Made by a program: the position numbers and the translations under genes. This document shows positions 169-32,000 of a DNA stretch of 32,000 nt, in pieces. The notes under the pieces are model-generated. The model had not been told where the DNA came from. It made no database searches and worked only from the letters and a program-made list of their open reading frames with translations. Within the stretch, counting starts at the first letter, position 1. The number at the start of each line of letters is the position of its first letter. The DNA comes from Halorhodospira halophila SL1. Its GTDB lineage: Bacteria > Pseudomonadota > Gammaproteobacteria > Nitrococcales > Halorhodospiraceae. The stretch is taken from positions 750,001 to 782,000 of the forward strand of contig NC_008789.1 of NCBI RefSeq assembly GCF_000015585.1, in the 5' to 3' direction.

Positions 169-2030
169 CACCGCCCCCGCATGAACAGCCGGGCCAGCGC
201 CTCGTCGTCGAGCACGGTGTAGGTCGGCCGCCCGTGGTTGCACTGCGCCGCCCGCGGGGTGCGCTCGATATCCCGCAGCAGGGCGTCCATCTCGGCGCGC
301 TCCAGACGCCGTCCGGCGCGGACCGACCCGTGGCAGGCCATCTGCGCCAGCAGCGCGTGGACCCGGTCCTCGACCCGCCCACCGGTCCCCTCGGACTCCA
401 GCGCCGCCACCGCGTCGCGGACCAGGGCCGCGGCGTCGGCCTCGGCGAGCAGCGCCGGTACTCGGTGAACACGCACCGACTCGGGGCCGGCGCGGTCCAC
501 CTCCAGACCCGCCCGGGCCAGCGTAGCCGCGTGCAGCTCCACCCGCTCGGCCTCCGCCGGGGTCACCGGCACACTCACCGGCACCAGCAACGACTGCGTG
601 GCGATCCCCGACGCCACCAGCTGCGCCTTCATCCGCTCGTAGACCACCCGCTCGTGGGCGGCGTGCATGTCCACCACCACCAGCCCCCGCTGCGACTCGG
701 CCAGAATATAGGCGTCGCGGATCTGCCCGACGGCGTAGCCGAGCTCCGGGGTCGCCTCACTCTCCCGGTCCCGGGTCTGCGACGGCCCGGGGGATCCGGC
801 AATGGCCGACGACGCCCCTTCAGCCGCGCCGCCAGGGCCCTCGGCAGCGGCGTCGGCGCCCCCATAGAGCTGCCGCGCCTCGGCCAGCGGCAGCCCCAGC
901 TCCGCCGTGCCGCCGAGCCCTTCGGAGGCCGGCCCCGTCCGCTCGGCCGCCGCCGGTTGCCCGGGGCCGGTCGGCGCGCCCGACGGCGGCCGCTCCGCCG
1001 CAGGCGGTGCCGCGGCACCGGCCGGCTCGGCGGTGGCCAGGGCGTCGGCGATGCGCCGGGCGAGGAAGTCGTGCACCGTCCGCCCGTCGCGAAAACGCAC
1101 CTCATGCTTCATGGGGTGGACGTTGACATCCACCCGAGCCGGATCCATCTCCAGAAAGAGGACGTAGGCCGGGTAGTGATCGCGGTAGAGGCAGTCGCTG
1201 TAAGCCTGGCGGATGCCGTGGGCCGCCCCCCGGTCGCGCACCAGCCGGCCGTTGACGAACAAGTACTGAAGATCCCCCTGGCGCCGCGCCGCCGTAGGCA
1301 GCCCCAGCCAGCCCCGCAGCTGCAGCCCGGCCCCCTCCAACTCCACCGCCAGGGCGTGATCGGCAAAGGCACGACCGAGCAGCTCCGCCAGACGCTCGTG
1401 CCGCTCCGTCTCGCTCTCCGCCCGGGGCACCGACCAGAGCCGCCGCCCCTGATGGACGAGCGAGAAACCGACGTCGAAGCGGCTCAGCGCCAGCCGGCGC
1501 AACGCCTCCTGGACGTGGTAGAGCTCGGTGCGCTCGGTGCGCAGGAACTTGCGACGCCCTGGCGTGTTGTAGAACAGGTCGTCGACGGTGACCGTGGTCC
1601 CCGGGGGGTGAGCCACCGGTTCCGGCGCACCCAGTGCGCCGCCGTCACAGCGCAGCTGATGGCCCAGCTCCGCCTCGGCGGTGCGCGAGGCCAGCGTCAG
1701 CCGCGAAACGGCAGCGATGCTCGGCAGGGCCTCCCCCCGGAACCCCAGACTGGCGATGCGCTCCAGCTCCTCGAGGCCGGTGAGCTTGCTGGTGGCGTGC
1801 CGGCGCAGCGCCAACTCCAGCTCCTCGGGCGGGATGCCGTCGCCGTCATCGGCGATGCGGATACGCTGCTTGCCGCCGCGCTCAATCTGCACCTCGACAC
1901 GCCCGGCGCCAGCGTCGAGGCTATTCTCCACCAGTTCCTTGACCACCGAACCGGGGCGCTCGACCACCTCGCCAGCGGCGATCTGGTCGATCAGGTTATC
2001 CGGCAGGGGACGAATACCGCGCGTCGTCAT
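168..2030 (-). CDS. mutL: DNA mismatch repair protein MutL
   Basis: This is a 620-aa ORF. The N-terminus ([34 protein letters not shown], then [15 protein letters not shown]) is the GHKL ATPase signature of MutL. An Ala/Pro/Gly-rich linker follows, then a C-terminal dimerisation domain ([20 protein letters not shown]). Confidence 0.97.
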
Positions 2031-2039
2031 GCGCGCATT

Positions 2040-3368
2040 CTAAGGGATGATCAGGGTGCTGCCAGCACGGATGCCATCCCCGGAGAGGTCATTGACCTCG
2101 CGCAGACGCTCGGTGCTGACCTGGTACTGCTGGGCGATCACCGAGAGATTCTCGCCCCGCTGAACCTCGTGCTCGCGCTGCCCGTTCTGGCCGGCGTCGG
2201 CCATCCGCAGCTCGGGGAGGATGTTGCGCTCGGCGTACTCGCGCACACCAGCGACGATGCCCTCGGCGAGGTCGCGCTGGTAGCTGAGGGTATTGAGCCG
2301 GCGCTCCTCCTCGGGGTTGGTGAGAAAGCCCAGCTCGATCAACAGCGAGGGCATGTCCAGGGACTTGAGCACGGCAAAGCCGGCCTGATCGACGCGGTTG
2401 CGCAGCAGATCGGCGTGGCGATCGAGCTTGGGCAGGAGGTGTTCGCCCATCTCCAGGCTTGCCTCGATGGTATGCCCCCGGGAGAGGTCCACCAATACCG
2501 AGGCCACCGTGTCGTCCTTGTCCTCCAGCGACACCCCGCCGATAAAGTCGGCCGCGTTCTCCCGGCGCGCCAGCACCCGCGCCTGCTCCGAGGTGGCACC
2601 GTCCACCGACAGGGCGTAGACCGATGCGCCTTTAACATTGGGATTTTCGGCGCCATCGGCATGGATGGACAGGAAGATATCGGCATTGCCTTCGCGGGCC
2701 ACCCGGGTGCGATCGCGCAGGTTCATGTAGTAGTCACCCTCGCGCACCAACAGCGGCTTCAGCCCAGGCGCCTCGGTCATCAGGTCGTAGAGCTTGCGCG
2801 CAACACTCAACGCCACGTCTTTCTCGAAGGTCCCCTCGGGACCGATGGCGCCGGGATCGACTCCGCCGTGGCCGGCGTCGATGGCCACGATCACATCCCG
2901 CGCCTCGCGCTCAGAGGCCGAGCGCACCGCCTGACGGCGCCCCCCCTGCTGGCCGCCGAGATCCACCACCAGACGCTGACCGCCGTCCTCGCCGCCGATG
3001 ACGAAGCTGCGCGCCTCCACCTCGCGGCTGACATCGAGGACGACCCGCAGCCCGCCGTCTTCCTGCCGGCCAGTGCGGATCTCCTGGAGAACGCCGCCTC
3101 GGGGGAGGTCTGCAGCGTTGAGCTCCACCCCCTCGAAATCGATGACCACCCGGTGCGGATCCGGCAGGCTGAAGACCCGGTGCTCGGGCACCCGGTCCAG
3201 GTCGAAGACCACCCGTGTGCGGTCGTCCGCGTCGGAAAGGCGCACATCATCGAGGGACGCGGCCGACGCCACGCCGGCCACCAACAGGCCGATCAGCACC
3301 CCGATCCAAGCCAGGCCATAGCCCCACCTCAAAGATCCTCCTCCCACCGTGCGGTGGCTTCTACGCAC
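2040..3368 (-). CDS. amiB: N-acetylmuramoyl-L-alanine amidase (AMIN domain + amidase_3 + C-terminal LysM)
   Basis: The translation shows a signal/TM segment WIGVLIGLLVAGVASAA and an AMIN-like stretch (RVVFDLDRVPEHRVFSLPDPHRVVIDFEGVEL). The amidase_3 core is IVAIDAGHGGVDPGAIG, ADIFLSIHAD and PSLLIELGFLTN. The protein ends in a LysM (HEVQRGENLSVIAQQYQVSTERLREVNDL). The listed 709-aa ORF is over-extended across tsaE. The start here is the GTG at 3368. A TTG at 3332 preceded by GGAGGAGGA is an equally good alternative. The symbol comes from tsaE-amiB-mutL synteny. Confidence 0.9.
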   Translation of the reverse strand: MRRSHRTVGGGSLRWGYGLAWIGVLIGLLVAGVASAASLDDVRLSDADDRTRVVFDLDRVPEHRVFSLPDPHRVVIDFEGVELNAADLPRGGVLQEIRTGRQEDGGLRVVLDVSREVEARSFVIGGEDGGQRLVVDLGGQQGGRRQAVRSASEREARDVIVAIDAGHGGVDPGAIGPEGTFEKDVALSVARKLYDLMTEAPGLKPLLVREGDYYMNLRDRTRVAREGNADIFLSIHADGAENPNVKGASVYALSVDGATSEQARVLARRENAADFIGGVSLEDKDDTVASVLVDLSRGHTIEASLEMGEHLLPKLDRHADLLRNRVDQAGFAVLKSLDMPSLLIELGFLTNPEEERRLNTLSYQRDLAEGIVAGVREYAERNILPELRMADAGQNGQREHEVQRGENLSVIAQQYQVSTERLREVNDLSGDGIRAGSTLIIP

Positions 3369-3442
3369 CCTCAAGGCTATGTCGGGCGCACGACCCGCTG
3401 CAAGAGTTTTTGCCCACTCAACGGGGAGATAAGCAGCAAAAC

Positions 3443-3906
3443 TCAAGCAGCACCTGAACCTAGCGCCGCCAGGGCCTTTCGCCCCCGCTCGGTGCCTGCG
3501 CCCACCGCCGCGCGCCGAGCGGCACCCGCATATCCCAGGCTCACGGTCAGGTCGGCAGGAGGCAGGACACCGGTGCCGCGCTCCGGCCACTCCACCAGCG
3601 CCAGCGTCCCCGGCGCCTCGATCTCCTCGATGCCCAGGAAGTAGAGCTCCTCGGGATCGGACAGGCGGTAGAGGTCCAGGTGCAGGATCGTCCCCGCCGC
3701 CGTGGCGTAGGGCTCGAGCAGCGTATAGGTCGGGCTGCGCACCGGGCCGGCGACACCGCGGGCGCGCAACAACCCCCGGGCCAGGGTGGTCTTGCCCGCC
3801 CCCAGGTCGCCGTGCAGGTAGACCACCCCCTCCGGGAGGGCCTCGGCCAGGGCCGCCCCGAAGGCCTCGGTGGCCGCGGCGTCGGCGAGGTTCCGCTGCC
3901 ACTCGG

Positions 3907-3910
<4 letters not shown>
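3443..3910 (-). CDS. tsaE: tRNA threonylcarbamoyladenosine (t6A) biosynthesis protein TsaE (YjeE ATPase)
   Basis: This 155-aa ORF carries the Walker A motif GDLGAGKTTLARG and the SPTYTLLEPY motif characteristic of TsaE/YjeE. Its GTG start overlaps the nnr stop (GTGA). Confidence 0.93.
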
Positions 3911-5436
<1,526 letters not shown>

Positions 5437-5515
5437 CTTAAAACGCCCACCCTGAACCCCGACACCGAGCGCACCACCGCACAACCCGACCACCAGCCAC
5501 CGAAGCCTGAGTCGC

Positions 5516-6583
5516 ATGGACCCTTCCGACCTCACCCCATCCATCCGCACCTGGGCGGCCGAACTCGGCTTCTCGGCCTGCGGCATCGCCAGCACCGAGC
5601 TGCCCGGCGACGAGGCGCACCTGATCCGCTGGCTGCAGGCCGGCCACCAGGGGGCGATGGGCTTCATGGGCCGCCACGGGCGCAAGCGGGCGCGCCCCCG
5701 GCAACTCGTCCCCGGAACCCGCTCGGTGGTGGTGGTGCGCATGGACTACACCCCGGACCAGGCCGCCGACCCCCGCGCGGTCCTCGACGACCCGCAGCGC
5801 GCCTTCATCACCCGTTACAGCCTGGGCCGGGACTACCACAAGCTGGTCCGCCGCCGCCTGCAGAAGCTCGCCGAGCGCATCCAGGCCGCCATCGGCCCCT
5901 TCGGCTACCGCGCCTTCGTCGACAGCGCCCCGGTGCTCGAGCGCGCCCTGGCCCGGGACGCCGGGCTGGGCTGGATCGGCAAGAACACCATGCTGCTCAA
6001 CCGCCACGCCGGGTCCTACTTCTTCCTCGGCGAGCTGTTCACCGACCTGCCGCTGCCCACCGACACCCCGGTGCGCACCCACTGCGGCAGCTGCCGGCGT
6101 TGCCTGCACGCCTGCCCCACGGACGCCTTCGTCGGCCCCTACCAGCTCGATGCGCGCCGCTGCATCTCTTATCTCACCATCGAGCACCCGGGGCCGATCC
6201 CCGAAGCGCTGCGTCCGGCCATGGGCAACCGCATCTTCGGCTGCGACGACTGCCAACTGGTCTGCCCCTGGAACCGCTACGCCCACCCCACCGCCGAGGC
6301 CGACTTCCAGCCCCGCCACGGTCTGGACGACGCGGCACTGGTGGCGTTATTCGGCTGGGATGAGGCCACCTATCTGGAGCGCACGGCGGGCTCCGCCATC
6401 CGGCGTATCGGTCATGAACGGTGGCTGCGCAACCTGGCGGTGGCGCTGGGCAATGCCGCGTCCACGCGGGAGGTGGTCGCCGCACTCGGGGAGCGACTCG
6501 ACCACCCTTCGGCCCTGGTCCGGGAACACGTCCGCTGGGCCCTGGCACGGCACGGCGCCGCACCAGAGCGGACCGGCGACTAG
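5516..6583 (+). CDS. queG: Epoxyqueuosine reductase QueG
   Basis: This 355-aa ORF has two 4Fe-4S motifs ([16 protein letters not shown] and [14 protein letters not shown]), the CISYLTIEH motif and a C-terminal HEAT-like tail, all typical of QueG. Confidence 0.93.
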
Positions 6584-6960
6584 GCGACCTGCAGCGGGAT
6601 GCTGCCGCGCCGCTGGGTGATGCGGTTGTCCGCATCGAGGTAGGCGAGCCGCGGCTGGAATTCGCCCAGCTCCGACTCCGGGACACCGGCGTAGGCGCAG
6701 ATGATCACCCGATCGCCTTCATTGCACTTGTGCGCCGCCGCCCCGTTCATCGAGATCATGCGCGAGCCCCGCTCGCCGATGATGGCGTAGGTCACGAAGC
6801 GCTCGCCGTTCTCGATGTTGTAGACGTGGATCTGCTCGTACTCGTGGATGCCGACTGCTTCCAACAGGTCCAGATCGATGGCGCAGGAGCCCTCGTACTC
6901 GAGTTCCGTCTGCGTCACGCGGGCCTGGTGCAGCTTGCCCTTGAGCATGTTCAGTTGCAT
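6580..6960 (-). CDS. panD: Aspartate 1-decarboxylase (pyruvoyl-dependent) PanD
   Basis: This 126-aa ORF begins [33 protein letters not shown]. It contains the Gly-Ser self-processing site (YEGSCAID) and NGAAAH. An AGAGG SD lies 8 nt upstream of the ATG. Confidence 0.96.
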
Positions 6961-7064
6961 GGCTCAAACCTCTATGCCGCGAAATCACATGCCGATCCGA
7001 TTATTGAAGAACCGGCCATGTGCACCTGCACAATCGGCAGCTCAGCGATTATGCACACCCTTGC

Positions 7065-7895
7065 TCAGCGCTTCAATCGCGCCTCGACATTGTCGATCAG
7101 CCGCGCGGCGCCGAGCCGCGCCGCGCCCAGGCACACTAGCCGCGGCTCGTCGCCCTGCGGTTCGGCGAGATCGTCGCAACGGCGTACCGCCACGTACTCC
7201 GCGGCGTCGAACCCGGCCGCCTCCAAGCGCCGGCAGGCCTGGGCCTCGAGCTGCGACCAATCCCGCCGCCCGGCCTCCAGCGCCGCGGCCACTTCGCAGA
7301 GGGTGGCGTAGAGCGCCGGGGCCCGCCGGCGCTGCTCGCCGTCCATGTAGCCGTTGCGCGAACTCAGCGCCAGGCCGTCGGCCTCACGCACGATGGGCAC
7401 CTCGACGATCTCCACCGACAGGTCAAGGTCGCCCACCACCCGGCGGATCACCTGCAGCTGCTGGTAATCCTTGCGCCCGAACGCCGCGACATCCGGCTCG
7501 ACGATATTGAGCAGCTTGATCACCACCACCGCCACCCCGGCGAAGTGGCCCGGCCGCGCCGCACCGCACAGGGTCTGGGTCAGCGCCGGCACGTCCACCC
7601 CGGTCCAGGGCGGCTCGACGCCGGGGTACATCTCGCGGGCGTTGGGGGCGAAGACCGCATCGACACCGCGCCCCTCCAGGGCGTTCAGATCGGCCTCCAG
7701 CGTGCGCGGATAGGCGTCGTAGTCCTCCCCCGGGCCGAACTGCAGCGGGTTGACGAAGATCGACACCACCAGCCGATCCACCCGCCGGGCCAGACGCTCG
7801 ACCAGTTCCAGGTGGCCGCGGTGGAGGTTGCCCATCGTCGGCACCAGCCCGATGCGCTCGCCGCGCGCCCGCCAGGCGCGCGACAGCTCCCGCAT
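7065..7895 (-). CDS. panC: Pantoate--beta-alanine ligase PanC
   Basis: The translation from the ATG at 7895 reads MRELSRAWRARGERIGLVPTMGNLHRGHLELV, followed by VSIFVNPLQFGP and FGRKDYQQ, which are PanC signatures. The upstream part of the listed 342-aa ORF overlaps panB and is Arg/Gly-rich noise. Confidence 0.94.
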   Translation of the reverse strand: MRELSRAWRARGERIGLVPTMGNLHRGHLELVERLARRVDRLVVSIFVNPLQFGPGEDYDAYPRTLEADLNALEGRGVDAVFAPNAREMYPGVEPPWTGVDVPALTQTLCGAARPGHFAGVAVVVIKLLNIVEPDVAAFGRKDYQQLQVIRRVVGDLDLSVEIVEVPIVREADGLALSSRNGYMDGEQRRRAPALYATLCEVAAALEAGRRDWSQLEAQACRRLEAAGFDAAEYVAVRRCDDLAEPQGDEPRLVCLGAARLGAARLIDNVEARLKR

Positions 7896-7918
7896 GGCGT
7901 TGCGCTCGGTGACCTGCC

Positions 7919-8746
7919 TCAAGCCTCGAACCCGTGCTCTGGTCCTGGGAAGGTTCCGGCCCGTACCGCCGCCACGTAGGCCTCCAGCGCCGCGTGCACA
8001 CCGCCGCCCTCGGCCCCGAAGGCCCGCGCAAAGCGCGGCGGCTGCTCGGTCACCCCGAGCACGTCGTGGAGTACCAGGATCTGTCCGTCGCAACCGCCGC
8101 CGGCGCCGATGCCCACCACCGGGACAGTCAGCCGCTCACTCAGCTGTTGCGCCAGGACGGCGGGCACGCACTCGAGGATGAGCAGATCGGCCCCGGCCGC
8201 CTCCAGCGCCAACGCGTCTGCCTCCATGCGCTCGGCGTCGGCCTGCTCGCGGCCCTGCACCCGGTAGCCGCCGATCTTGTGCACCTGCTGTGGCTTCAGC
8301 CCGAGGTGGCCGCAGACCGGGATGCCGTTCTGGGCCAGGCGCTCGACCAGCGCCGCCTGCTCGGCGCCGCCCTCGAGCTTGACCATCTGCGCCCCGCCCT
8401 CCTTCATCAACCGCCCGGCGTTGTGCAGGCCCTGCTCCACACCGGTGTGGCTCATGAACGGCAGATCAGCCACCACCAGTGCCCGGCGACAGGCCCGGGC
8501 CACGCAGCGGGTGTGGTAGACCATGTCGTCCACCGTCACCGGCAGGGTGGTCTCATGACCCTGGACCACCATACCGAGAGAGTCGCCGATGAGCAGCAGG
8601 TCGACGCCGGCGCGCTCACAGGCCGCGGCAAAGCCGTAGTCGTAGGCCGTCAGGCAGGCCAGGGGCCGGCCCTCGCGCTTCATCGCGCGCATGCGGGAGA
8701 CCGTCACGGCCCCGCCGGAGGCGTGCTTGCGATCACCGCTCGACAT
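7919..8746 (-). CDS. panB: 3-methyl-2-oxobutanoate hydroxymethyltransferase PanB
   Basis: The motifs LTAYDYGFA, LLIGDSLGMVVQGHETTLPVT, VKLEGG and GHLGLKPQ are PanB hallmarks. The ATG at 8746 has a GAGG 8 nt upstream. The listed ORF starts 9 nt further up, at a TTG (8755). Confidence 0.95.
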   Translation of the reverse strand: MSSGDRKHASGGAVTVSRMRAMKREGRPLACLTAYDYGFAAACERAGVDLLLIGDSLGMVVQGHETTLPVTVDDMVYHTRCVARACRRALVVADLPFMSHTGVEQGLHNAGRLMKEGGAQMVKLEGGAEQAALVERLAQNGIPVCGHLGLKPQQVHKIGGYRVQGREQADAERMEADALALEAAGADLLILECVPAVLAQQLSERLTVPVVGIGAGGGCDGQILVLHDVLGVTEQPPRFARAFGAEGGGVHAALEAYVAAVRAGTFPGPEHGFEA

Positions 8747-10848: not shown

Positions 10849-10923
10849 GCTCCCATCGTCTAGCGGTTAGGACGCCGCCCTCTCAAGGCGGAAACAGGGG
10901 TTCGAATCCCCTTGGGAGCGCCA
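10849..10923 (+). tRNA. tRNA-Glu, anticodon CUC, with an encoded CCA end
   Basis: The sequence is GCTCCCATCGTCTAGCGGTTAGGACGCCGCCCTCTCAAGGCGGAAACAGGGGTTCGAATCCCCTTGGGAGCGCCA. The acceptor stem GCTCCCA/TGGGAGC has 7 bp. The anticodon stem is CCGCC/GGCGG with loop C-T-CTC-A-A. The T-arm is AGGGG-TTCGAAT-CCCCT, the discriminator is G and the 3' end is CCA. The overall sequence is collinear with E. coli tRNA-Glu. Confidence 0.93.
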
Positions 10924-26392: not shown

Positions 26393-26484
26393 GTAGCTCT
26401 CCCCCGGGACCGCAGCGTGCGGAGTAAATGCGGGAAAATACTGGCAGGTGGGCTGGAGGTCAAGCAAGGCGAGCCCGCAACCGA

Positions 26485-26514
26485 TTGACCCTCGACACAC
26501 GCGCGAGCTATCTT
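26485..26514 (+). promoter_or_regulatory. Candidate sigma70 promoter (TTGACC-N18-TATCTT) for the plus-strand small secreted protein gene
   Basis: TTGACC lies at 26485-26490 and TATCTT at 26509-26514, about 28 nt upstream of the GGGAGG SD and ATG of the 26542 gene. The call is a motif match only. Confidence 0.3.
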
Positions 26515-26541
26515 CCATTTAAACCCTGCGCTTCGGGAGGA

Positions 26542-27009
26542 ATGATGAGGCGCGCGAACAGGCACTGGACGCTAGCCTTCGCCGGTTCAACGCTCGGCGT
26601 ATCGCTCCTTACCGCCGGCTCGGCGGGCGCCGAAACCCCTGGGTCAGACCAGGCCGACTTCACCCAAGAAGTGGAGGTAGTGGAGGCCGCCAGCGCCGAG
26701 ATCAAGGAACCGAACCCCCACCTCGAGCTGAACGGTGGCGCGCCCGTCACCGCAGGCGAGAGTGCTTCCGGGGCGTTCAAGTACCTCGTTGTGGGGCTCG
26801 GCACCATGGAGATCTCGTTCGATGGAACGCTGCAGGAGGCCCCCGACGGCGGCAGCGAGCATGCGAATCTAGAGGTCCCGGACGATCGGCACGAGTTCGT
26901 CAAACTGCTCCACAAAGACACGGGCGAGGTCACCGCCGAGACCGAGGAAGAGGCACCGTCCGGCGGCTACCAGTGGGAAGTGACGATCACGGCAGCCTAC
27001 GACTGGTGA
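26542..27009 (+). CDS. Small, very acidic secreted protein; paralogue 1 of the putative pilin-like subunit family
   Basis: The start is the tandem ATG ATG at 26542/26545, after GGGAGG. The signal peptide is MMRRANRHWTLAFAGSTLGVSLLTAGSAGA/ETP. The mature N-terminus has an alternating hydrophobic strand (DFTQEVEVVEA). An ISFDG motif is shared with paralogue 2. The C-terminus is GGYQWEVTITAAYDW-stop. Confidence 0.7.
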   Translation: MMRRANRHWTLAFAGSTLGVSLLTAGSAGAETPGSDQADFTQEVEVVEAASAEIKEPNPHLELNGGAPVTAGESASGAFKYLVVGLGTMEISFDGTLQEAPDGGSEHANLEVPDDRHEFVKLLHKDTGEVTAETEEEAPSGGYQWEVTITAAYDW

Positions 27010-27165
27010 TCCCCACGTCGGTGGACTGCCCCCGACCTCGCCCTTCCCCTGGACTGCTGACTGCGGAGTCGATGCGGACAGAGACCGGCGAGGCGGCCTA
27101 GAAACCAAGCCGCGGGAAGCGGCTCCCCCGATTACTGAGGCCTAGCGCATAGACGCCCGCCCCAT

Positions 27166-27756
27166 TCAGAGGTCGTACTCCGCGGTCGCCGTGATGGTTG
27201 TAGAGTAGTCTCCGGAAGCTCCTTCGGGGATATGGTCCTTCTTGAGGAAGGCCTCAACCGGCACCCGCTTTTCCCCATCATTCATGTTGAACCGGTGAGA
27301 GTTCGAGTTGGACTCCGGCGCCACGCAGAGGTCGATCGAATCGACACCATGCTGATCGGAGGTCAACGGGTAGACTTCATATTGACCATCATCCTGTCCT
27401 CGGTCGTTGCACGCACCCTCAGCGTCATGGGCACCGTCAAAGCTCACCTTGAAGTCTGCCCCTGGCTCACCGGTGAAATCCAGGCAGATGGGCGGATCCT
27501 GCCTCTCCCCCATAGACAGATCCTGCTGCCCAGCCACGAAGGGGCCCAGATGGACGACCCTGTTGGCGCAGCTCTCCTGCATATCAATAGGTTGGGCCAC
27601 GGTGAGCTCCGTCGTAAATGTATCCCGAGCCGATTCGGGCTCCGCGAAGGCCATCACCGAGACGCCCAGAAGCGCAGCGCCCAAGGCCACTGCCTTGCGC
27701 CGCACGCCTGTCGCGCGATCCGTGCCCCACTCCCTGGCTGAACTGACCGCCCCCAT
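27166..27756 (-). CDS. Small acidic secreted protein; paralogue 2 (post-usher position, tip-subunit/adhesin-like)
   Basis: The ATG at 27756 has a GGAGG 5 nt upstream. The signal peptide is RRKAVALGAALLGVSVMAFA/EPE. The mature N-terminus is DTFTTELTVAQPI. The protein has four Cys, a VSFDG motif and the C-terminus SGDYSTTITATAEYDL-stop. It lies 45 nt downstream of the usher-like gene on the same strand. Confidence 0.7.
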   Translation of the reverse strand: MGAVSSAREWGTDRATGVRRKAVALGAALLGVSVMAFAEPESARDTFTTELTVAQPIDMQESCANRVVHLGPFVAGQQDLSMGERQDPPICLDFTGEPGADFKVSFDGAHDAEGACNDRGQDDGQYEVYPLTSDQHGVDSIDLCVAPESNSNSHRFNMNDGEKRVPVEAFLKKDHIPEGASGDYSTTITATAEYDL

Positions 27757-27801
27757 AAGGCCCTCCTCAAAACACGCTGCAAGAGCAGCCTGCAACCGAC
27801 A

Positions 27802-30735
27802 TCAGTCACCCTCTTCCGCCAGTTCCAATTCTTCCTGATGCTGCCAGTGGGTGATCTCGTCCAGCGGCGAACGATCCGCCGGGACCATCACACGATCACC
27901 GTCTTCGACCTCGCCGTTGAGGATCACCACCTCCTCGTAGAGCGACTCCAGGCCACCTTCGACTTGCTCCGCACCCAGGCGATCAAGGAGTTGCGCCAGG
28001 TGATCGCGGAGGGTGTGGCTCGAGTCGTAGCTGAAGGTGATCTGCTCGACCGCCTCTGCCGGCGAAGCGACCCGGACGATCTCACCACCGTCATGGATCG
28101 TGAGATCCTGATGACTCACCAGATCACCATCCCCCTCAACGCTGATGCGCTGCGCCGTGGCGGTCTGCGGGACATCCAGGCGCTCTGCCTGCTCCTCCGA
28201 AGCGCGCACCAGATACCCTCCCGGCGGCAGCTGATCCAGGATGAAGAGACCATCGAAGACACTGCGATCCGTCTGGACCACCTCCCCGGTTTCGGTATCC
28301 ACCGCCTCCATCTCGAAACCGGAGACCTCCGATGGCTCTGCCGTGCCACGCTGGCGACGAACCACGCCATCCACCTCGCCCGTGAGGTGCAGCTCGAAAT
28401 CCAGGGGGAGTACCCGACCCGGGCGCGGCTCGAAGCTTACCCCCCGGGTTGCAGGTTGGACGAAGGGATTGTCGATCGACCCCACATCCACCTCCACGTT
28501 GACCGGATCGTGGGGATCCAGACGGGCGGCCCAGGCCTCCCCGTTCTCATCGGTGCCCCCGCAGCTGCGGCCTGCACAGACATCGACCCCCTCCACGGGC
28601 TCGCCATCCTGATGAACCCTTGCCATCACCGCCCCGTGATCGTAGCCGCGCCCGGCCTCGGGATCCGGGTACCACCCCCCGGCAGGATGGGGCAGCCCTC
28701 CCACATCCAGGCCGACCGACACCTGCCACCGACCCCCCGTATCCACCTGACCTTGCCCCGAGAAGCGCCAGTACTCGCGAGCAGTACGGGAAATGCCCAG
28801 ACGGAGGTTATGAGGACGGTCATTGAAGCTGCCGCGCACCTGGGCACTGCCCCGCCAGTTGTCATGAAGGCTCTGACTGTACTCGGCGTTGGCGCTATCC
28901 AGCTCCGCCTCGGGCGCCAGGCCATAGCTCACACCGAGGTTCAGCCGCCCCTCCCGATAACGCCCCCAGCGTGTCTGCAGGCTGCCCTGCGCGGAAGGGT
29001 CGCCGTCATCCGCCTGGCTCACGGTCAGCGAATGCCGGAGCCGCTGACCGCCGATGCTCACGTTTTCGCGGGTGCGCAGGCGTTGCCAAGTCGACTCGCC
29101 GTCCGCGGACTCCTGATGCTCGTAGCGCAGACGGGTGCGCAGCGGCCCCAAAGAGCCGCGCACTTGCAACTCGTGGCCGTGACGCAAGTCACCGCTGACG
29201 CGGCTACGCAGCTCGTCGGTCTCCAGGCCATCCACCAGGGTGTACTCGTAGTCCAGGCTCCACGCGCCCAGACCGCGCTCCAGCGCGAGCTGCCAAGCCC
29301 GGCCTTGGTCATTCTCGAAGGCACCGCGAAGACGGCCCCAAACCCCGAACGCACTGAACGAGGCGTCCGCCCCGACCAGCTCTCGGCGCGTCAGCTCGTC
29401 CTCCTCGTCATCCGGCTCCATGTAGTGGAGGTCGCCGCCGACCGTCAGGGTCTCGGTCACCCCGACGTCCATCCGCGCCGCCGCGCGCCGGTCCTGGTCA
29501 TCGCGCGGCTGGTGCTCATAGAGACTGACCCCCTCTCGGCTGGCATCCAGGCTGTAGTGCACCATGCCCGGCGGCAGCAGCCCCGGGCCGATCTCAATCG
29601 TCCGCGAGATGGTCTCGCGCTCGCCGTGGGGTCCGTAGAACTCAATGGTGTAAGGGTTGGTGCCCGGCCGGGCGTCAATGTCCTCGAACTCGTGGCGATC
29701 CGTGTCCACATCGTGTGCAAAGTCGACCAGATCGCCGTCGCGATAGAGCTCGACGTCCCAGCCCTCGGGAACCTCCACCTCGATGGACTGATCGGTAAAC
29801 GTGGTACGCGCCATACCCTCCGGTCGGTTCGTCAGGGTCACCCCCATCCCGGAGCCGCCACGCCGGATCAGGTCGTACCGGGGCGCGCGCACCCGCCCCA
29901 GCTCGTAGCGCTCCAGGGCCGGGTGGCCGACCTGCTGCCCGAGGGTCCCGTCGAAGCGCCGGATTCCGTCGGTGTCATTCGCCTGTAACCGCCACTCCGC
30001 CTCATGCCAGAGGAGATCTCCAGCGCCTGCGAGATTACCGCTGGTGCTGCTACCGTTCCCGCTTTGCTGGTGATTGAGGCTCAGGGACCATGCAGGACGG
30101 GTCATGAAACGGGCCGGCAGCGGTTCACGGGGCAGCCACTCCTCACCGCCGATACCCGCCCCGTCATCGGTCAGTCGTGCCCACCGGGCCTCGCGCTCCA
30201 GACGGCTAAGGATCGGCAATTCCTCGTCCGCACGCATGTGGACCTCAGCGCGGCGCGGGCGATATTCGAAGCCAACGGGCAGGAACTCCTGGATGGCATC
30301 CTCACGGAAGTAGATGTCATCGTGCTCTTGGATCCAATCCTCTTCCTCAAGGATCAGCGGGCGGTCGCCGACCTCGCCCATGCCGCTGGCGGTATCGAAG
30401 GAGACCGTCCGGTCCGGATCGAGGACCCAGCCGGAGACCTGCCCCTCAAGCGGGTCGACCTCGACCGCCAGCTCCAGATGGCGGGCGAGCTGGCCCAATG
30501 GGTAGTAGATCTCCCCTTTGCGCTGGAGCATATACTCGCTCTCGGAGAGGGGGTAGCCTTCCAGCTCCACGCGCAGCACCATATCCTCCACCCCCTCGCC
30601 ATCATCCTCTTCCTGGAGGCTCTCCACAGAAAGCGGGGCAGGCGCGCTGGGCGACCAGAACGCCCCCGCCGCGGCCAGGAGCCAAACCGCGACCGCAACA
30701 GACCGCCCAGTCGCACCCACGCGAGACCATCTCAC
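27802..30735 (-). CDS. Outer-membrane fimbrial usher-like protein (977 aa) with an extended C-terminal region
   Basis: The N-terminus has a signal peptide (SVAVAVWLLAAAGA). The usher-type N-domain pattern is LRVELEGYPLSESEYMLQRKGEIYYPLGQLARHLEL. A plug-like segment is IEVEVPEGWDVELYRDGDLVDFAHDVDTDRHEFEDIDARPGTNPYTIEFYGPHGERETISRTI, which parallels the FimD/PapC pattern. Long alternating Tyr/Arg/Gly/Ser-rich stretches are consistent with barrel strands. The GTG start at 30735 lies 4 nt after the chaperone stop. Assignment is by motif-level recognition only. Confidence 0.6.
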   Translation of the reverse strand: MRWSRVGATGRSVAVAVWLLAAAGAFWSPSAPAPLSVESLQEEDDGEGVEDMVLRVELEGYPLSESEYMLQRKGEIYYPLGQLARHLELAVEVDPLEGQVSGWVLDPDRTVSFDTASGMGEVGDRPLILEEEDWIQEHDDIYFREDAIQEFLPVGFEYRPRRAEVHMRADEELPILSRLEREARWARLTDDGAGIGGEEWLPREPLPARFMTRPAWSLSLNHQQSGNGSSTSGNLAGAGDLLWHEAEWRLQANDTDGIRRFDGTLGQQVGHPALERYELGRVRAPRYDLIRRGGSGMGVTLTNRPEGMARTTFTDQSIEVEVPEGWDVELYRDGDLVDFAHDVDTDRHEFEDIDARPGTNPYTIEFYGPHGERETISRTIEIGPGLLPPGMVHYSLDASREGVSLYEHQPRDDQDRRAAARMDVGVTETLTVGGDLHYMEPDDEEDELTRRELVGADASFSAFGVWGRLRGAFENDQGRAWQLALERGLGAWSLDYEYTLVDGLETDELRSRVSGDLRHGHELQVRGSLGPLRTRLRYEHQESADGESTWQRLRTRENVSIGGQRLRHSLTVSQADDGDPSAQGSLQTRWGRYREGRLNLGVSYGLAPEAELDSANAEYSQSLHDNWRGSAQVRGSFNDRPHNLRLGISRTAREYWRFSGQGQVDTGGRWQVSVGLDVGGLPHPAGGWYPDPEAGRGYDHGAVMARVHQDGEPVEGVDVCAGRSCGGTDENGEAWAARLDPHDPVNVEVDVGSIDNPFVQPATRGVSFEPRPGRVLPLDFELHLTGEVDGVVRRQRGTAEPSEVSGFEMEAVDTETGEVVQTDRSVFDGLFILDQLPPGGYLVRASEEQAERLDVPQTATAQRISVEGDGDLVSHQDLTIHDGGEIVRVASPAEAVEQITFSYDSSHTLRDHLAQLLDRLGAEQVEGGLESLYEEVVILNGEVEDGDRVMVPADRSPLDEITHWQHQEELELAEEGD

Positions 30736-30739
30736 CGAC

Positions 30740-31606
30740 TTACTCGAGGGTGACGGTGCGCTCCGCCTTCACGTGACCACCGCTCTCGCCAAAGCCCTCC
30801 TCGTCATCCTCGAAGGCCCGATACACCACCCGCAACTCATCGCCCGGGGCCACATCGTGATTCTCAACCGAGAAGGGCAGAATCCGCTCATCCATCGATG
30901 TGGAGACAGCCGCCCGAGAGCGTTCGTGGATCGGCTCATCCTCTCCGGGCCGGTAGACCTCCAGGGAACCGTAAACCCCCCGCTCACCGTTGCGGGCCAC
31001 CGTGATCTCCACTGAGTCCTCGCCGTCCGCGTCTTCCGCTGGTTCGAAGCGAGCACCCCGAATCTCCGGCTCGCCGTCCGGATCACCGACTAGGATACCG
31101 ACCGGAATCGTCATGGCGAAGAGCGCCTGAATATCGACGGCCACCTCGTCGTCCTCGAGTTCCTCCTCGGCGAATGCCTGTCCGTCGGCGGTTGGCATGG
31201 TCCGAACGGCAAAACGGGCGCGATACTCGCCCGGATCGATCTCATCCGGCACACGGGACATGATGCGCACGGTCTGGCTCTCGCCCGGCTGGAGGGTCAT
31301 CTGGCGGGGATGGTGGCGCAGCAGGTCGGCCCCGTGGTGGCCCCGCTCCCCGGCTTCAGGCTCCACGGGATCAATCAGCTCCGAACGCCCGTAGGCATCC
31401 GCCTCGACATCGGTCACCAGAACCCGGTACTCTTGGACCTCATCGCTCTGGTTAAACACCTCGACCTGCGCGCTGCGCTGCTGATCGTCGAAGAACAGCC
31501 GCTGCGGCGCGATCTGAATCGCCGCCGACGCCTGCGTCGCGGCAAATACCAAAGTCGTTGCCACGCAACCAACAGCTCCCCAGTGACACCTAACCACCCG
31601 CCTCAT
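30740..31606 (-). CDS. Periplasmic PapD-like pilus chaperone candidate (288 aa)
   Basis: An AGGAG SD lies 8 nt before the ATG at 31606. The signal peptide is GCVATTLVFAATQASA/A. The sequence continues IQIAPQRLFFDDQQRSAQVEVFNQSDEVQEYRV (first strand with a conserved-position Arg, then x-V-x-V-x-N). It also has HPRQMTLQPGESQTVRI and FAMTIPVGILVG, followed by a second beta-rich domain. Assignment is by motif-level recognition only. Confidence 0.6.
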   Translation of the reverse strand: MRRVVRCHWGAVGCVATTLVFAATQASAAIQIAPQRLFFDDQQRSAQVEVFNQSDEVQEYRVLVTDVEADAYGRSELIDPVEPEAGERGHHGADLLRHHPRQMTLQPGESQTVRIMSRVPDEIDPGEYRARFAVRTMPTADGQAFAEEELEDDEVAVDIQALFAMTIPVGILVGDPDGEPEIRGARFEPAEDADGEDSVEITVARNGERGVYGSLEVYRPGEDEPIHERSRAAVSTSMDERILPFSVENHDVAPGDELRVVYRAFEDDEEGFGESGGHVKAERTVTLE

Positions 31607-31688
31607 GGATTTCGCTCCTATCCGCTATCATTGCCCTAATGACCCTTGGGGCACCCCCCCATCCGCTTCCAATCTAAAACCGAGGTTT

Positions 31689-31717
31689 CCCCGCCTCCTC
31701 CCTGGGGAGAAGGCGGG
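31689..31717 (-). promoter_or_regulatory. Strong GC-rich stem-loop between the upstream subunit gene and the chaperone gene
   Basis: The minus strand reads CCCGCCTTCTCC-CCAG-GGAGGAGGCGGG. This is a 12-bp stem with one G-U pair and a 4-nt loop, starting 19 nt after the TAG of the upstream gene. A TTTT run lies 9 nt downstream, so it is not a textbook intrinsic terminator. Confidence 0.5.
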
Positions 31718-31735
31718 ATCCCAACGCGGCGGAGA

Positions 31736-32000
31736 CTAGTCCGCGTACTCAACCGATACAGTGAATGTATTGCTGTATACTCCGGCGTTTTCAGGGGCCG
31801 TACTATAATCCTCGCACTGATTACAAAATTCGACCCACTCATGCTTCTCCCCGTCTTCCCCTAAGGCGATCGGGTCACTGGAGCTATTGTTGTCGTCAAA
31901 ACCGAATGAGGAAGAGAGGGGAATAATCGTATCGTGGTCGCCGTTCTCTAGCTCGAGATAAACGGTGTGACCATCAGGGTTGTGAATGTCGCCGTCAAGG
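31736..32000 (-). CDS. C-terminal part of a small acidic protein; paralogue 3 of the putative pilin-like family (in the major-subunit position; the gene runs off the right edge)
   Basis: This ORF is not in the supplied track because it has no start in the window. My manual minus-strand translation is open from 32000 to the TAG at 31738-31736. It reads ...LDGDIHNPDGHTVYLELENGDHDTIIPLSSSFGFDDNNSSSDPIALGEDGEKHEWVEFCNQCEDYSTAPENAGVYSNTFTVSVEYAD-stop. The C-terminal motif is shared with the genes at 26542 and 27166. GC is about 50% (hand count of 31741-31860). Confidence 0.6.
   Translation of the reverse strand, partial: LDGDIHNPDGHTVYLELENGDHDTIIPLSSSFGFDDNNSSSDPIALGEDGEKHEWVEFCNQCEDYSTAPENAGVYSNTFTVSVEYAD

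Follow-up and report, generated by a model that had tools for sequence, protein, structure and literature searches.

Does the end of a 32,000-nt stretch of the Halorhodospira halophila SL1 chromosome (NC_008789.1, positions 750,001 to 782,000 of the forward strand; this whole stretch is called the window here) encode a machinery for building fibres on the cell surface? Chaperone-usher pili are the standard textbook example of how proteins polymerise across the outer membrane without energy input, and the original prediction, made from the sequence, had placed a highly divergent operon of this kind on the minus strand, with the order subunit, chaperone, usher, subunit. The four co-directional genes and the peptides quoted for them were all found at the positions given there. 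We conclude that the cluster very probably encodes a strongly divergent chaperone-usher-type system for surface-fibre assembly, made up of DUF4402 subunits, a PapD-like chaperone and an usher with a prealbumin-like C-terminal domain. Its genes follow one another in the order sub144, sub184, chaperone, usher and sub196, with the convergent sub154c behind them (subunit genes are named after the length of their products in amino acids), and the start of the operon lies outside the window.

Predicted folds and remote homology of the usher and the chaperone

Two open reading frames (ORFs), both modelled with AlphaFold2 (AF2), form the core of the cluster:

30740..31606, minus strand: chaperone, 288 aa, periplasmic, two immunoglobulin (Ig)-like domains
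27802..30735, minus strand: usher-like outer-membrane protein, 977 aa, GTG start

Only 4 nt separate the chaperone stop from the usher start, and the two genes are also tightly spaced in other Halorhodospira clusters. The AF2 model of the 977-aa protein, built on an alignment of homologues (predicted local distance difference test (pLDDT) 78.0), upholds its proposed identity as an usher. By DSSP, it contains 6 + 18 = 24 barrel strands and a six-strand plug inserted between strands 6 and 7, and this predicted model matches the layout of PapC and FimD, with a 24-strand barrel, a plug after strand 6, and N- and C-terminal domains. Its parts map to the window as follows:

30226..30588, minus strand: N-terminal periplasmic domain, aa 50-170, a beta/alpha domain in the model
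29830..30093, minus strand: barrel strands 1-6, aa 215-302, six long strands by DSSP of the model
29590..29787, minus strand: plug (middle) domain, aa 317-382, six short strands between barrel strands 6 and 7
28690..29562, minus strand: barrel strands 7-24, aa 392-682, eighteen long strands in the model
28426..28635, minus strand: C-terminal domain 1, aa 701-770, a beta-sandwich in the model
28183..28413, minus strand: C-terminal domain 2, aa 775-851, prealbumin-like CarboxypepD_reg/SdrD_B fold (from Pfam and PDB matches)
27805..28152, minus strand: C-terminal extension of the Halorhodospira clade, aa 862-977, model pLDDT about 85

FimD and PapC were the best Foldseek matches of the model, at E-values of 1e-27 to 1e-17 (9fw9_D at 1e-27; also 3rfz, 7lhg and 2vqi), and PapC/FimD translocation domains were matched at 3e-18 (2vqi) and 1e-12 (3ohn). 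The next fold classes were LptD (2e-7), followed by porins and TonB-dependent receptors (about 1e-6 to 1e-5), with BtuB and FrpB at about 1e-5 only. Profile-profile comparison pointed the same way: in hhalign, the usher family aligned with CsuD-type ushers plus FimD at 98.3% (E 1.1e-14, 474 columns) across the plug, the barrel and the first C-terminal domain. The target profiles were built from the archaic operons of A. baumannii (csuA/B-A-B-C-D-E), Novosphingobium and Burkholderia thailandensis, the archaic ones taken from annotated plasmid records, and from the E. coli fim operon. Significance was reached only once such small alignments of genuine archaic and classical components were used; hhalign against the single sequences of FimD, FimC and CsuA/B gave nothing significant for the family profiles.

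The plug is the most conserved part of the usher (GW[DA]VELY[RL][DNE]...G.Y.F.D...N...YGP.G), with invariant and near-invariant columns clustering there, and hhalign paired it with the plug region that CsuD and FimD have in common with it (PGPF...G). Behind the barrel, C-terminal domain 1 aligned with the CsuD region ahead of PapC_C, and C-terminal domain 2 stands at the place that PapC_C takes in canonical ushers. A prealbumin-like SdrD_B/CarboxypepD_reg domain was present in 49 of 50 usher relatives, and the family hidden Markov model (HMM) matched SdrD B domains in the PDB at 2.4e-9. An extra C-terminal region of the usher, claimed from the start together with the low GC and the Asp/Glu richness of the cluster, was confirmed, as were these two features. 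The extension, about 115 aa long and predicted to contain a beta-alpha-alpha-beta unit (aa 862-964), is present in only the six closest homologues. A guess from this topology that it is LysM-like found no Pfam support, the extension having no Pfam match at all. Among the relatives, the usher C-terminus carries SPOR in six of 50 and LysM in one of 50, which fits an end that lies in the periplasm and faces the cell wall, as in ushers; such peptidoglycan-binding modules suggest anchoring to the cell wall.

Could the large protein instead be an ordinary outer-membrane transporter or porin with a CarboxypepD_reg domain, next to an unrelated Ig-like protein in a neighbourhood without functional meaning? 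CarboxypepD_reg is its sole Pfam match (sub-threshold, E 1.4e-5, aa 804-851) and the source of the name that its relatives bear in RefSeq, and this domain also occurs in TonB-dependent receptors. However, it lies C-terminal to the barrel here, whereas TonB-dependent receptors run from an N-terminal domain through a plug to a 22-strand barrel. The model matches usher structures at 1e-27 as against 2e-7 for LptD, its plug follows strand 6, the significant hhalign match is to ushers, and the three kinds of gene are found together in at least nine phyla. We regard the transporter reading as largely refuted and highly improbable.

The 288-aa protein had been predicted to be a PapD-like chaperone, and its AF2 model, likewise built on an alignment of homologues (pLDDT 79.4), indeed shows two beta-sandwich domains of the Ig type. 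Foldseek against the PDB returned CsuC as the best match (4e-9), then CfaA, FimC, Caf1M and PapD (range 4e-9 to 1e-7), and hhalign aligned the chaperone family with CsuC-type chaperones plus FimC at 96.9% (E 1.5e-10). A chaperone homologue adjoins the usher gene in 81 of 85 related loci.

A second family also resembles this protein. WxLIP of E. faecium (PDB 9i25_C, 9i1y_A) matches the chaperone family profile over both Ig domains at E 3.4e-5 and the chaperone model in Foldseek at 2e-8, and three of 25 family members show a weak match to Pfam WxLIP_PGBD. The cluster would then be a WxL/WxLIP-like envelope-binding module in which the 288-aa protein tethers partners to peptidoglycan. By inspection of its sequence, however, the protein ends ...HVKAERTVTLE without a hydrophobic C-terminal helix, and WxLIP has such a membrane helix (PMC10599100). 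Of the marks of WxLIP membership (a C-terminal anchor, a WxL partner and a monoderm host), the chaperone shows none: its host is diderm, no WxL-domain partner was found, and its gene is paired with that of an usher-like barrel. Together with the hhalign match to CsuC/FimC, this leaves the tethering module with very little credence. The chaperone family and WxLIP may still share a deep link, to judge from their sequences; the WxLIP paper makes no mention of chaperone-usher chaperones (PMC10599100).

Several observations weigh against assigning the cluster to a chaperone-usher system. The 977-aa usher matched none of Pfam Usher, PapC_N and PapC_C (PF00577, PF13954, PF13953), and the chaperone reached 19.4 bits (E 1.1e-3) with PapD_N (PF00345), under the 23-bit cut-off. 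In the positive controls, CsuD-type ushers matched Pfam Usher at 1e-29 to 1e-38 and CsuC matched PapD_N with 72.5 bits; overall, archaic parts strongly passed Usher, PapC_C, PapD_N (1e-20) and SCPU (1e-22 to 1e-30). Among relatives, Pfam Usher was found in one of 13 and three of 50 ushers (E 1.7e-4 to 1.7e-3, under cut-off), PapC_N and PapC_C in none of either set, and PapD_N at E ≤0.01 in five of 25 chaperones (best 7.6e-6). Against PDB sequences, the 110-sequence usher-family HMM reached FimD only at E 0.43, where C-terminal domain 1 alone touches FimD C-terminal domain 1 (residues 685-745), and the chaperone family profile reached chaperone-usher chaperones only at E 0.14-0.9 (a range shared with ushers), so that its WxLIP match is better than that to any solved chaperone of this type. 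Neither protein matched anything in NCBIfam, and single-sequence phmmer searches of the PDB gave sub-threshold or irrelevant matches. The Foldseek template modelling (TM)-scores are moderate (0.45-0.57), as expected for multi-domain models, and are not proof. Nor are the periplasmic domains of the usher the canonical ones: C-terminal domain 2 is not PapC_C, and the N-domain is Cu_amine_oxidN1-like, with matches to Pfam Cu_amine_oxidN1 in nine of 50 relatives (best 1e-8) and never to PapC_N. The docking sites of these domains may work differently from those of canonical ushers, from which, to our knowledge, neither such an N-domain nor a SPOR/LysM C-terminus is known. Lastly, the system is known here from its genes and from the predicted folds of its chaperone and usher.

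Of the tests that the original prediction had called decisive, all that were run favoured it. That similarity would be weak at the level of single sequences had been foreseen. HMM matches were indeed sub-threshold, and the profile-profile matches, which are significant for all three types of part (for the subunits, see below), mark these proteins as remote homologues of chaperone-usher parts that fall outside the class-defining Pfam families.

The public annotation departs from the gene models used here. It starts the usher 36 codons downstream (941 aa), at the cost of the signal peptide (window 30627-30735, minus strand); we favour the 977-aa GTG start, as the N-terminus M...R.G......A...LL....APAPLS is conserved in orthologues. 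The annotated chaperone is 14 aa shorter (274 aa) and starts within the signal peptide, which ends ...ATQASA ahead of AIQ. A 716-aa open frame antisense to the usher (27838-29988, plus strand) is an artefact of high G+C content and no gene.

Subunits and the assembly route they suggest

Extending the search past position 32000 for the operon start, as the original prediction had advised, was productive. We used a genome locus that covers the cluster (L083; window position w = 41565 - L083 position), which shares a 200-base exact match with the window end and is identical to the window where compared. Just past base 32000 and upstream of sub184, it contains sub144, a further co-directional subunit gene of 144 aa, as well as the whole of sub184 (184 aa; L083 9275-9829), which runs to about 32290, past the window end. 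The extent first given thus holds for the genes it named, and the cluster is larger than that, with sub144 on one side and the convergent sub154c, left out of the coordinates of the original prediction, on the other. Within the window, the subunit genes are:

31736..32000, minus strand: sub184, secreted subunit, 3' part; the translation ends ...GVYSNTFTVSVEYAD, with the stop at 31736
27166..27756, minus strand: sub196, 196-aa secreted subunit with four Cys (ORF; the mechanical ORF from TTG has 209 aa)
26545..27009, plus strand: sub154c, 154-aa secreted subunit paralogue, convergent with the operon (ORF and gene call in L083); it ends ...GGYQWEVTITAAYDW

Counterparts of sub154c take the same convergent position in H. 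halochloris, with 156 aa, and in strain L089, with 151 aa. All four small proteins of H. halophila and their orthologues can be aligned with one another. Behind the signal peptide, they carry an S-F-x-x-x-V-x-V segment with alternating hydrophobic residues, and the Halorhodospira subunits end G-x-Y-x-x-x-V-T-x-T-A-x-Y-D; both motifs are found in sub154c. An iterative HMM search started from the Halorhodospira subunits collected 163 small ORFs beside usher/chaperone genes of other genomes, and 161 subunit ORFs share the C-terminal pattern G-x-Y-x-G-T-F-x-V-T-V-x-Y, with Tyr last or second-last.

Which pilin family do these proteins belong to? Among 40 sampled small proteins (33 from outside Halorhodospira), 30 matched Pfam DUF4402, with a best E-value of 1.5e-32, and none matched SCPU (PF05229); of the families proposed at the outset (SCPU, DUF4402 and fimbrial subunits), it is the DUF4402 type that probably applies. 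The H. halophila subunits have no Pfam family in the precomputed annotation table of L083, and in direct comparison with PF14352 the two in-window ones gave no match at E ≤1 and the 144-aa one none at E ≤0.01. In hhalign, however, a profile of seven Halorhodospira subunits aligned over the full length with Pfam-positive DUF4402 proteins (96.4%, E 1.3e-9). The DUF4402 proteins in turn aligned end to end with SCPU pilins (92.2%, E 5.8e-7), as did, at 87.2% (E 3.9e-6), the seven Halorhodospira subunits. Judged by these profiles, the Halorhodospira subunits are probably divergent DUF4402 proteins, and sub184 is a candidate DUF4402-like pilin.

The 196-aa protein had been taken for a tip subunit, which our data do not support. 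It is a single-domain protein, 29% identical to sub184 (E 4e-10), is absent from the two other Halorhodospira clusters, and matched only itself among 5.8 billion proteins; it lacks database homologues because it is a strain-specific paralogue of sub184.

The two terminal motifs have counterparts in CsuA/B. Its terminal strand motif (...GDYKDTLLVTVNF; sequence verified against 7zl4_A) is of the same kind as the C-terminus of the subunits, and its donor strand is formed by the N-terminal 14 residues; construct 6fm5, which is self-complemented, carries them at its C-terminal end. The corresponding donor strand of the H. halophila subunits is likely their N-terminal segment of alternating hydrophobic residues.

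Combined, these features suggest the following route of assembly. Export by Sec would come first, for the chaperone and the usher as well as for the four small acidic subunits of 144, 184, 196 and 154 aa; signal peptides can be seen in the sequences. In the periplasm, the two-Ig-domain chaperone would cap each subunit by strand donation, and chaperone-subunit complexes would dock on the periplasmic N-domain of the usher, whose position suggests that it recruits them. The S-F-x-x-x-V-x-V segment of an incoming subunit would displace the chaperone strand from the previous subunit by donor-strand exchange, and the polymer would exit through the 24-strand barrel after the plug has swung out. From fold and homology, we consider it likely that donor-strand complementation and exchange take place through such a plugged usher; we also infer a filamentous product, the roles of individual subunits and regulation.

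The same machinery could also lay down an amorphous or capsule-like acidic coat of DUF4402 proteins with no discrete fibre (compare the Caf1/F1 antigen and the Myxococcus spore coat protein U). Such a coat would fit the remote kinship of the subunits with SCPU (spore coat protein U) domains, their extreme acidity (isoelectric point (pI) about 4.05-4.4) and a cluster that holds no gene for a two-domain adhesin, all subunits being 144-196 aa long. Sequence features do not set a coat apart from a thin fibre, but the presence of several subunit paralogues in one locus is a usual trait of structured fibres, and the solved archaic relatives Csu and CupE form thin zigzag filaments (PMC9452303, PMC10104325). 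We consider a coat unlikely and prefer a fibre as the product.

Spread and class of the family

How widespread is this system? A word-indexed protein search with the usher returned only 13 homologues, from which the family seemed rare. An exhaustive profile search identified this impression as a sensitivity artefact: it returned 22,403 cluster representatives (clusters at 50% identity) at E ≤1e-3 and 3,845 at E ≤1e-30. Each of the 150 best matches listed had E <1e-175, and all but one were near full length, whereas the weakest may reflect the prealbumin-like domain only. In a one-genome-per-species collection, a scan with a single conserved peptide pattern confirmed 234 relatives. The lineage is thus poorly described, as had been suspected, but with thousands of clusters it is not rare.

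The DUF4402-chaperone-usher module was found in at least nine phyla. Relatives were recorded from alpha-, beta- and gamma-Proteobacteria (Pseudoalteromonas, Vibrio, sphingomonads, Micavibrio, Polaromonas) as well as from Chlorobiales, Acidobacteriota, Desulfobacterota, Myxococcota, Armatimonadota, Fibrobacteraceae, Krumholzibacteriia and a spirochaete. Of 84 related loci, 75 had one or more DUF4402-like genes, and the commonest orders of subunit (s), chaperone (C) and usher (U) genes were ssCU (28 loci), sCU (8) and sssCU (5). RefSeq names the subunit "DUF4402 domain-containing protein" and the chaperone "molecular chaperone" or "fimbria/pilus periplasmic chaperone"; the usher is listed as "carboxypeptidase regulatory-like domain-containing protein" so that standard annotation misses its identity as an usher.

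Copies of the module are also carried by conjugative plasmids, namely pMC4 of Sphingopyxis indica and plasmid 2 of Polaromonas sp. JS666 (891-8494), the latter bracketed by two IS6-family transposase genes in a composite-transposon-like arrangement. In Novosphingobium, pLA3 of N. pentaromativorans US6-1 carries a correctly annotated SCPU-type archaic operon, and two other strains carry the DUF4402-type module; the occurrence of both types on plasmids of this genus, in different strains, marks them as separate systems.

Surveys of chaperone-usher pili have mostly been built on the Pfam families for Usher, PapD and pilins. A large family, with 3,845 clusters and 234 confirmed relatives, escapes these models. 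In the literature covered, which excludes Nuccio and Baumler 2007 with its sigma clade, we found no paper on DUF4402 (PF14352), on a Halorhodospira chaperone-usher system or on a link of such systems with a carboxypeptidase regulatory-like domain, and reviews name only the classical, alternative and archaic classes (PMC10104325).

Where, then, does the cluster belong? It had been likened to archaic (SCPU-like) pili, and this stands as far as gene order and a remote relation to the Csu parts are concerned, but not for membership of the archaic class as Pfam defines it. The best assignment for the cluster is to a branch of its own, the DUF4402 type, which is widespread and uncharacterised, remotely related to the archaic Csu type and outside the archaic class as now defined. 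A bolder proposal, which we put forward tentatively and hold with less than even confidence, is that this branch forms an unrecognised fourth major chaperone-usher-like class ("DUF4402 type"), separated from each of the three known ones (classical, alternative and archaic) by a distance equal to or greater than that between them. Under this tentative proposal, the class would be found in nine phyla or more, with Chlorobiota, Acidobacteriota, Armatimonadota, Fibrobacterota and Spirochaetota among them. Its ushers would have swapped periplasmic domains (a Cu_amine_oxidN1-like N-domain and a prealbumin-like C-terminal domain), often with a SPOR/LysM wall anchor, and its chaperones would connect PapD-like chaperones with WxLIP of Gram-positive bacteria at the sequence level. 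Such a bridge would hint that strand-complementing Ig chaperones are older than the split between diderms and monoderms.

If the family is a working assembly system, DUF4402 gains a function and the range of chaperone-usher systems extends to many environmental and extremophile lineages. It would also provide usher variants with other docking domains and wall anchors for mechanistic comparison, and an all-hyper-acidic example that folds and polymerises in saturated brine.

Evolution, expression and known counterparts of the locus

The neighbours of the cluster are proS and a divergently transcribed HTH-PAS-GGDEF-EAL gene at one end, ilvH and ilvC at the other. Two features of the locus are referred to below:

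26470..32000, strand not assigned: in-window part of a compositionally deviant, hypervariable block (blastn against a syntenic strain; shift in GC at third codon positions (GC3)), which extends to about 32788 in genome terms
31689..31718, minus strand: 13-bp G+C-rich hairpin (by folding) in the sub184-chaperone spacer, followed after a few bases by a U-rich stretch

The lowered GC of the cluster is most evident in GC3, which is 0.60-0.81 for its six genes versus 0.87-0.97 for 14 flanking genes, with an overall GC of 0.54-0.67 versus 0.62-0.76. The cluster proteins contain 17-27% Asp+Glu and have a pI of 4.05-4.55, as compared to 13-15% and about 5.1-5.6 for neighbouring soluble proteins. Since the H. 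halophila proteome is itself acidic (PMC7042295, PMC3817357, PMC3746430), the acidity of the cluster is no mark of a different mechanism; it is plausibly an exaggerated trait of the organism in proteins that face saturated brine.

Three Halorhodospira lineages have kept the ORFs intact, at 38-73% identity. In strain L089, the cluster occupies the same site, and its flanking proteins share 78-100% identity with their window counterparts (IlvH 100, IlvC 99, LeuA 99, ProS 94, down to UDG 78), whereas identity within the cluster is 38% for sub184, 46% for sub144, 56% for the chaperone, 63% for sub154c and 70% for the usher. Similarly, blastn against this strain aligned the flanks at 86-91%, and the block, from about 26470 to past the window end, at 72-74% or not at all. 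The cluster of H. halochloris (L084) lies at a different chromosomal site, beside uvrA and ssb, yet the window proteins are nearer to it than to the syntenic strain: 57% versus 33-38% for sub184, 55% versus 43-46% for sub144, 78% versus 56% for the chaperone and 73% versus 70% for the usher. The GC3 of the window cluster also resembles the background of H. halochloris. We reject a recent transfer from H. halochloris itself, as the nucleotide identity is only 71.6%. The horizontal origin proposed in the original prediction thus gains support from composition, from the incongruent similarity between strains and from the plasmid copies, one of them flanked by insertion sequences. At the sequence level, the pattern indicates cassette-like replacement or horizontal exchange along with fast divergence of exposed parts; the block would have been gained or replaced horizontally, its surface-exposed parts evolving fast. 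A locus so variable between near-identical flanks is likely a target of diversifying selection, for example by phage or grazers.

The promoter of the operon is outside the window, and consensus scans for promoters and terminators performed no better than on shuffled sequence. In each of the three Halorhodospira clusters, however, strong G+C-rich hairpins stand behind the two upstream subunit genes, at conserved positions and with differing sequences (spacers L083 9145-9278 and window 31607-31740 and their equivalents in L084 and L089; z-scores down to -4.3). A weak terminator call (31693-31681) overlaps the 3' arm of the hairpin between sub184 and the chaperone. Attenuation or transcript stabilisation in favour of subunit mRNA is known for pap and fim, and by analogy this hairpin is a candidate attenuator or mRNA-stabilising element of the same effect; owing to the hairpins after the first two subunit genes, subunit transcripts would probably outnumber those of the chaperone and usher.

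The HTH-PAS-GGDEF-EAL gene (L083 6411-8351, past the window) is kept beside the cluster in two strains of the H. halophila group, and a LuxR/GerE regulator takes its place in H. halochloris. Control of the fibre genes by cyclic di-GMP or by a LuxR-type regulator is possible, to judge from these neighbours. The remainder of the window consists of ordinary housekeeping genes, and a tRNA gene (10849-10920, plus strand) is its only Rfam match.

How does the system compare with those already known? WxLIP (DUF916 + DUF3324) of Gram-positive WxL clusters shares with the chaperone two perpendicular Ig-like domains. In contrast, it is a membrane-anchored protein of monoderms that binds WxL domains on peptidoglycan, and it lacks an usher partner (PMC10599100). 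The uncharacterised secreted DUF4402 proteins (PF14352) align with the Halorhodospira subunits over the full length, and Pfam-positive DUF4402 genes hold the same locus position in relatives, but the Halorhodospira proteins are far more acidic and carry insertions. FimD and PapC, the best structural matches of the usher, have the same succession of N-domain, 24-strand barrel with plug and two C-terminal sandwiches, and the chaperone forms the two-domain boomerang of the Fim/Pap systems; identity in the Foldseek alignments is 12-14%, and the subunits belong to another family. From Csu of Acinetobacter baumannii and CupE of Pseudomonas aeruginosa, the cluster differs in that Csu parts pass Pfam Usher, PapC_C, PapD_N and SCPU and the H. 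halophila parts pass none of them. Its subunits are DUF4402-like rather than SCPU, without a two-domain tip adhesin like CsuE (339 aa), and its usher has a prealbumin-like domain for PapC_C, a Cu_amine_oxidN1-like N-domain (in relatives) and the extra C-terminal extension. The likeness to Csu and CupE nevertheless runs through the whole cluster: small subunits, chaperone, usher and one more subunit follow in this order, as in csuA/B-A-B-C-D-E; the subunits share an N-terminal strand-like segment, an L.FG motif and a C-terminal G.Y.DT..VT..[FYW]; CsuC is the best structural match of the chaperone; and all three types of part are remote homologues.

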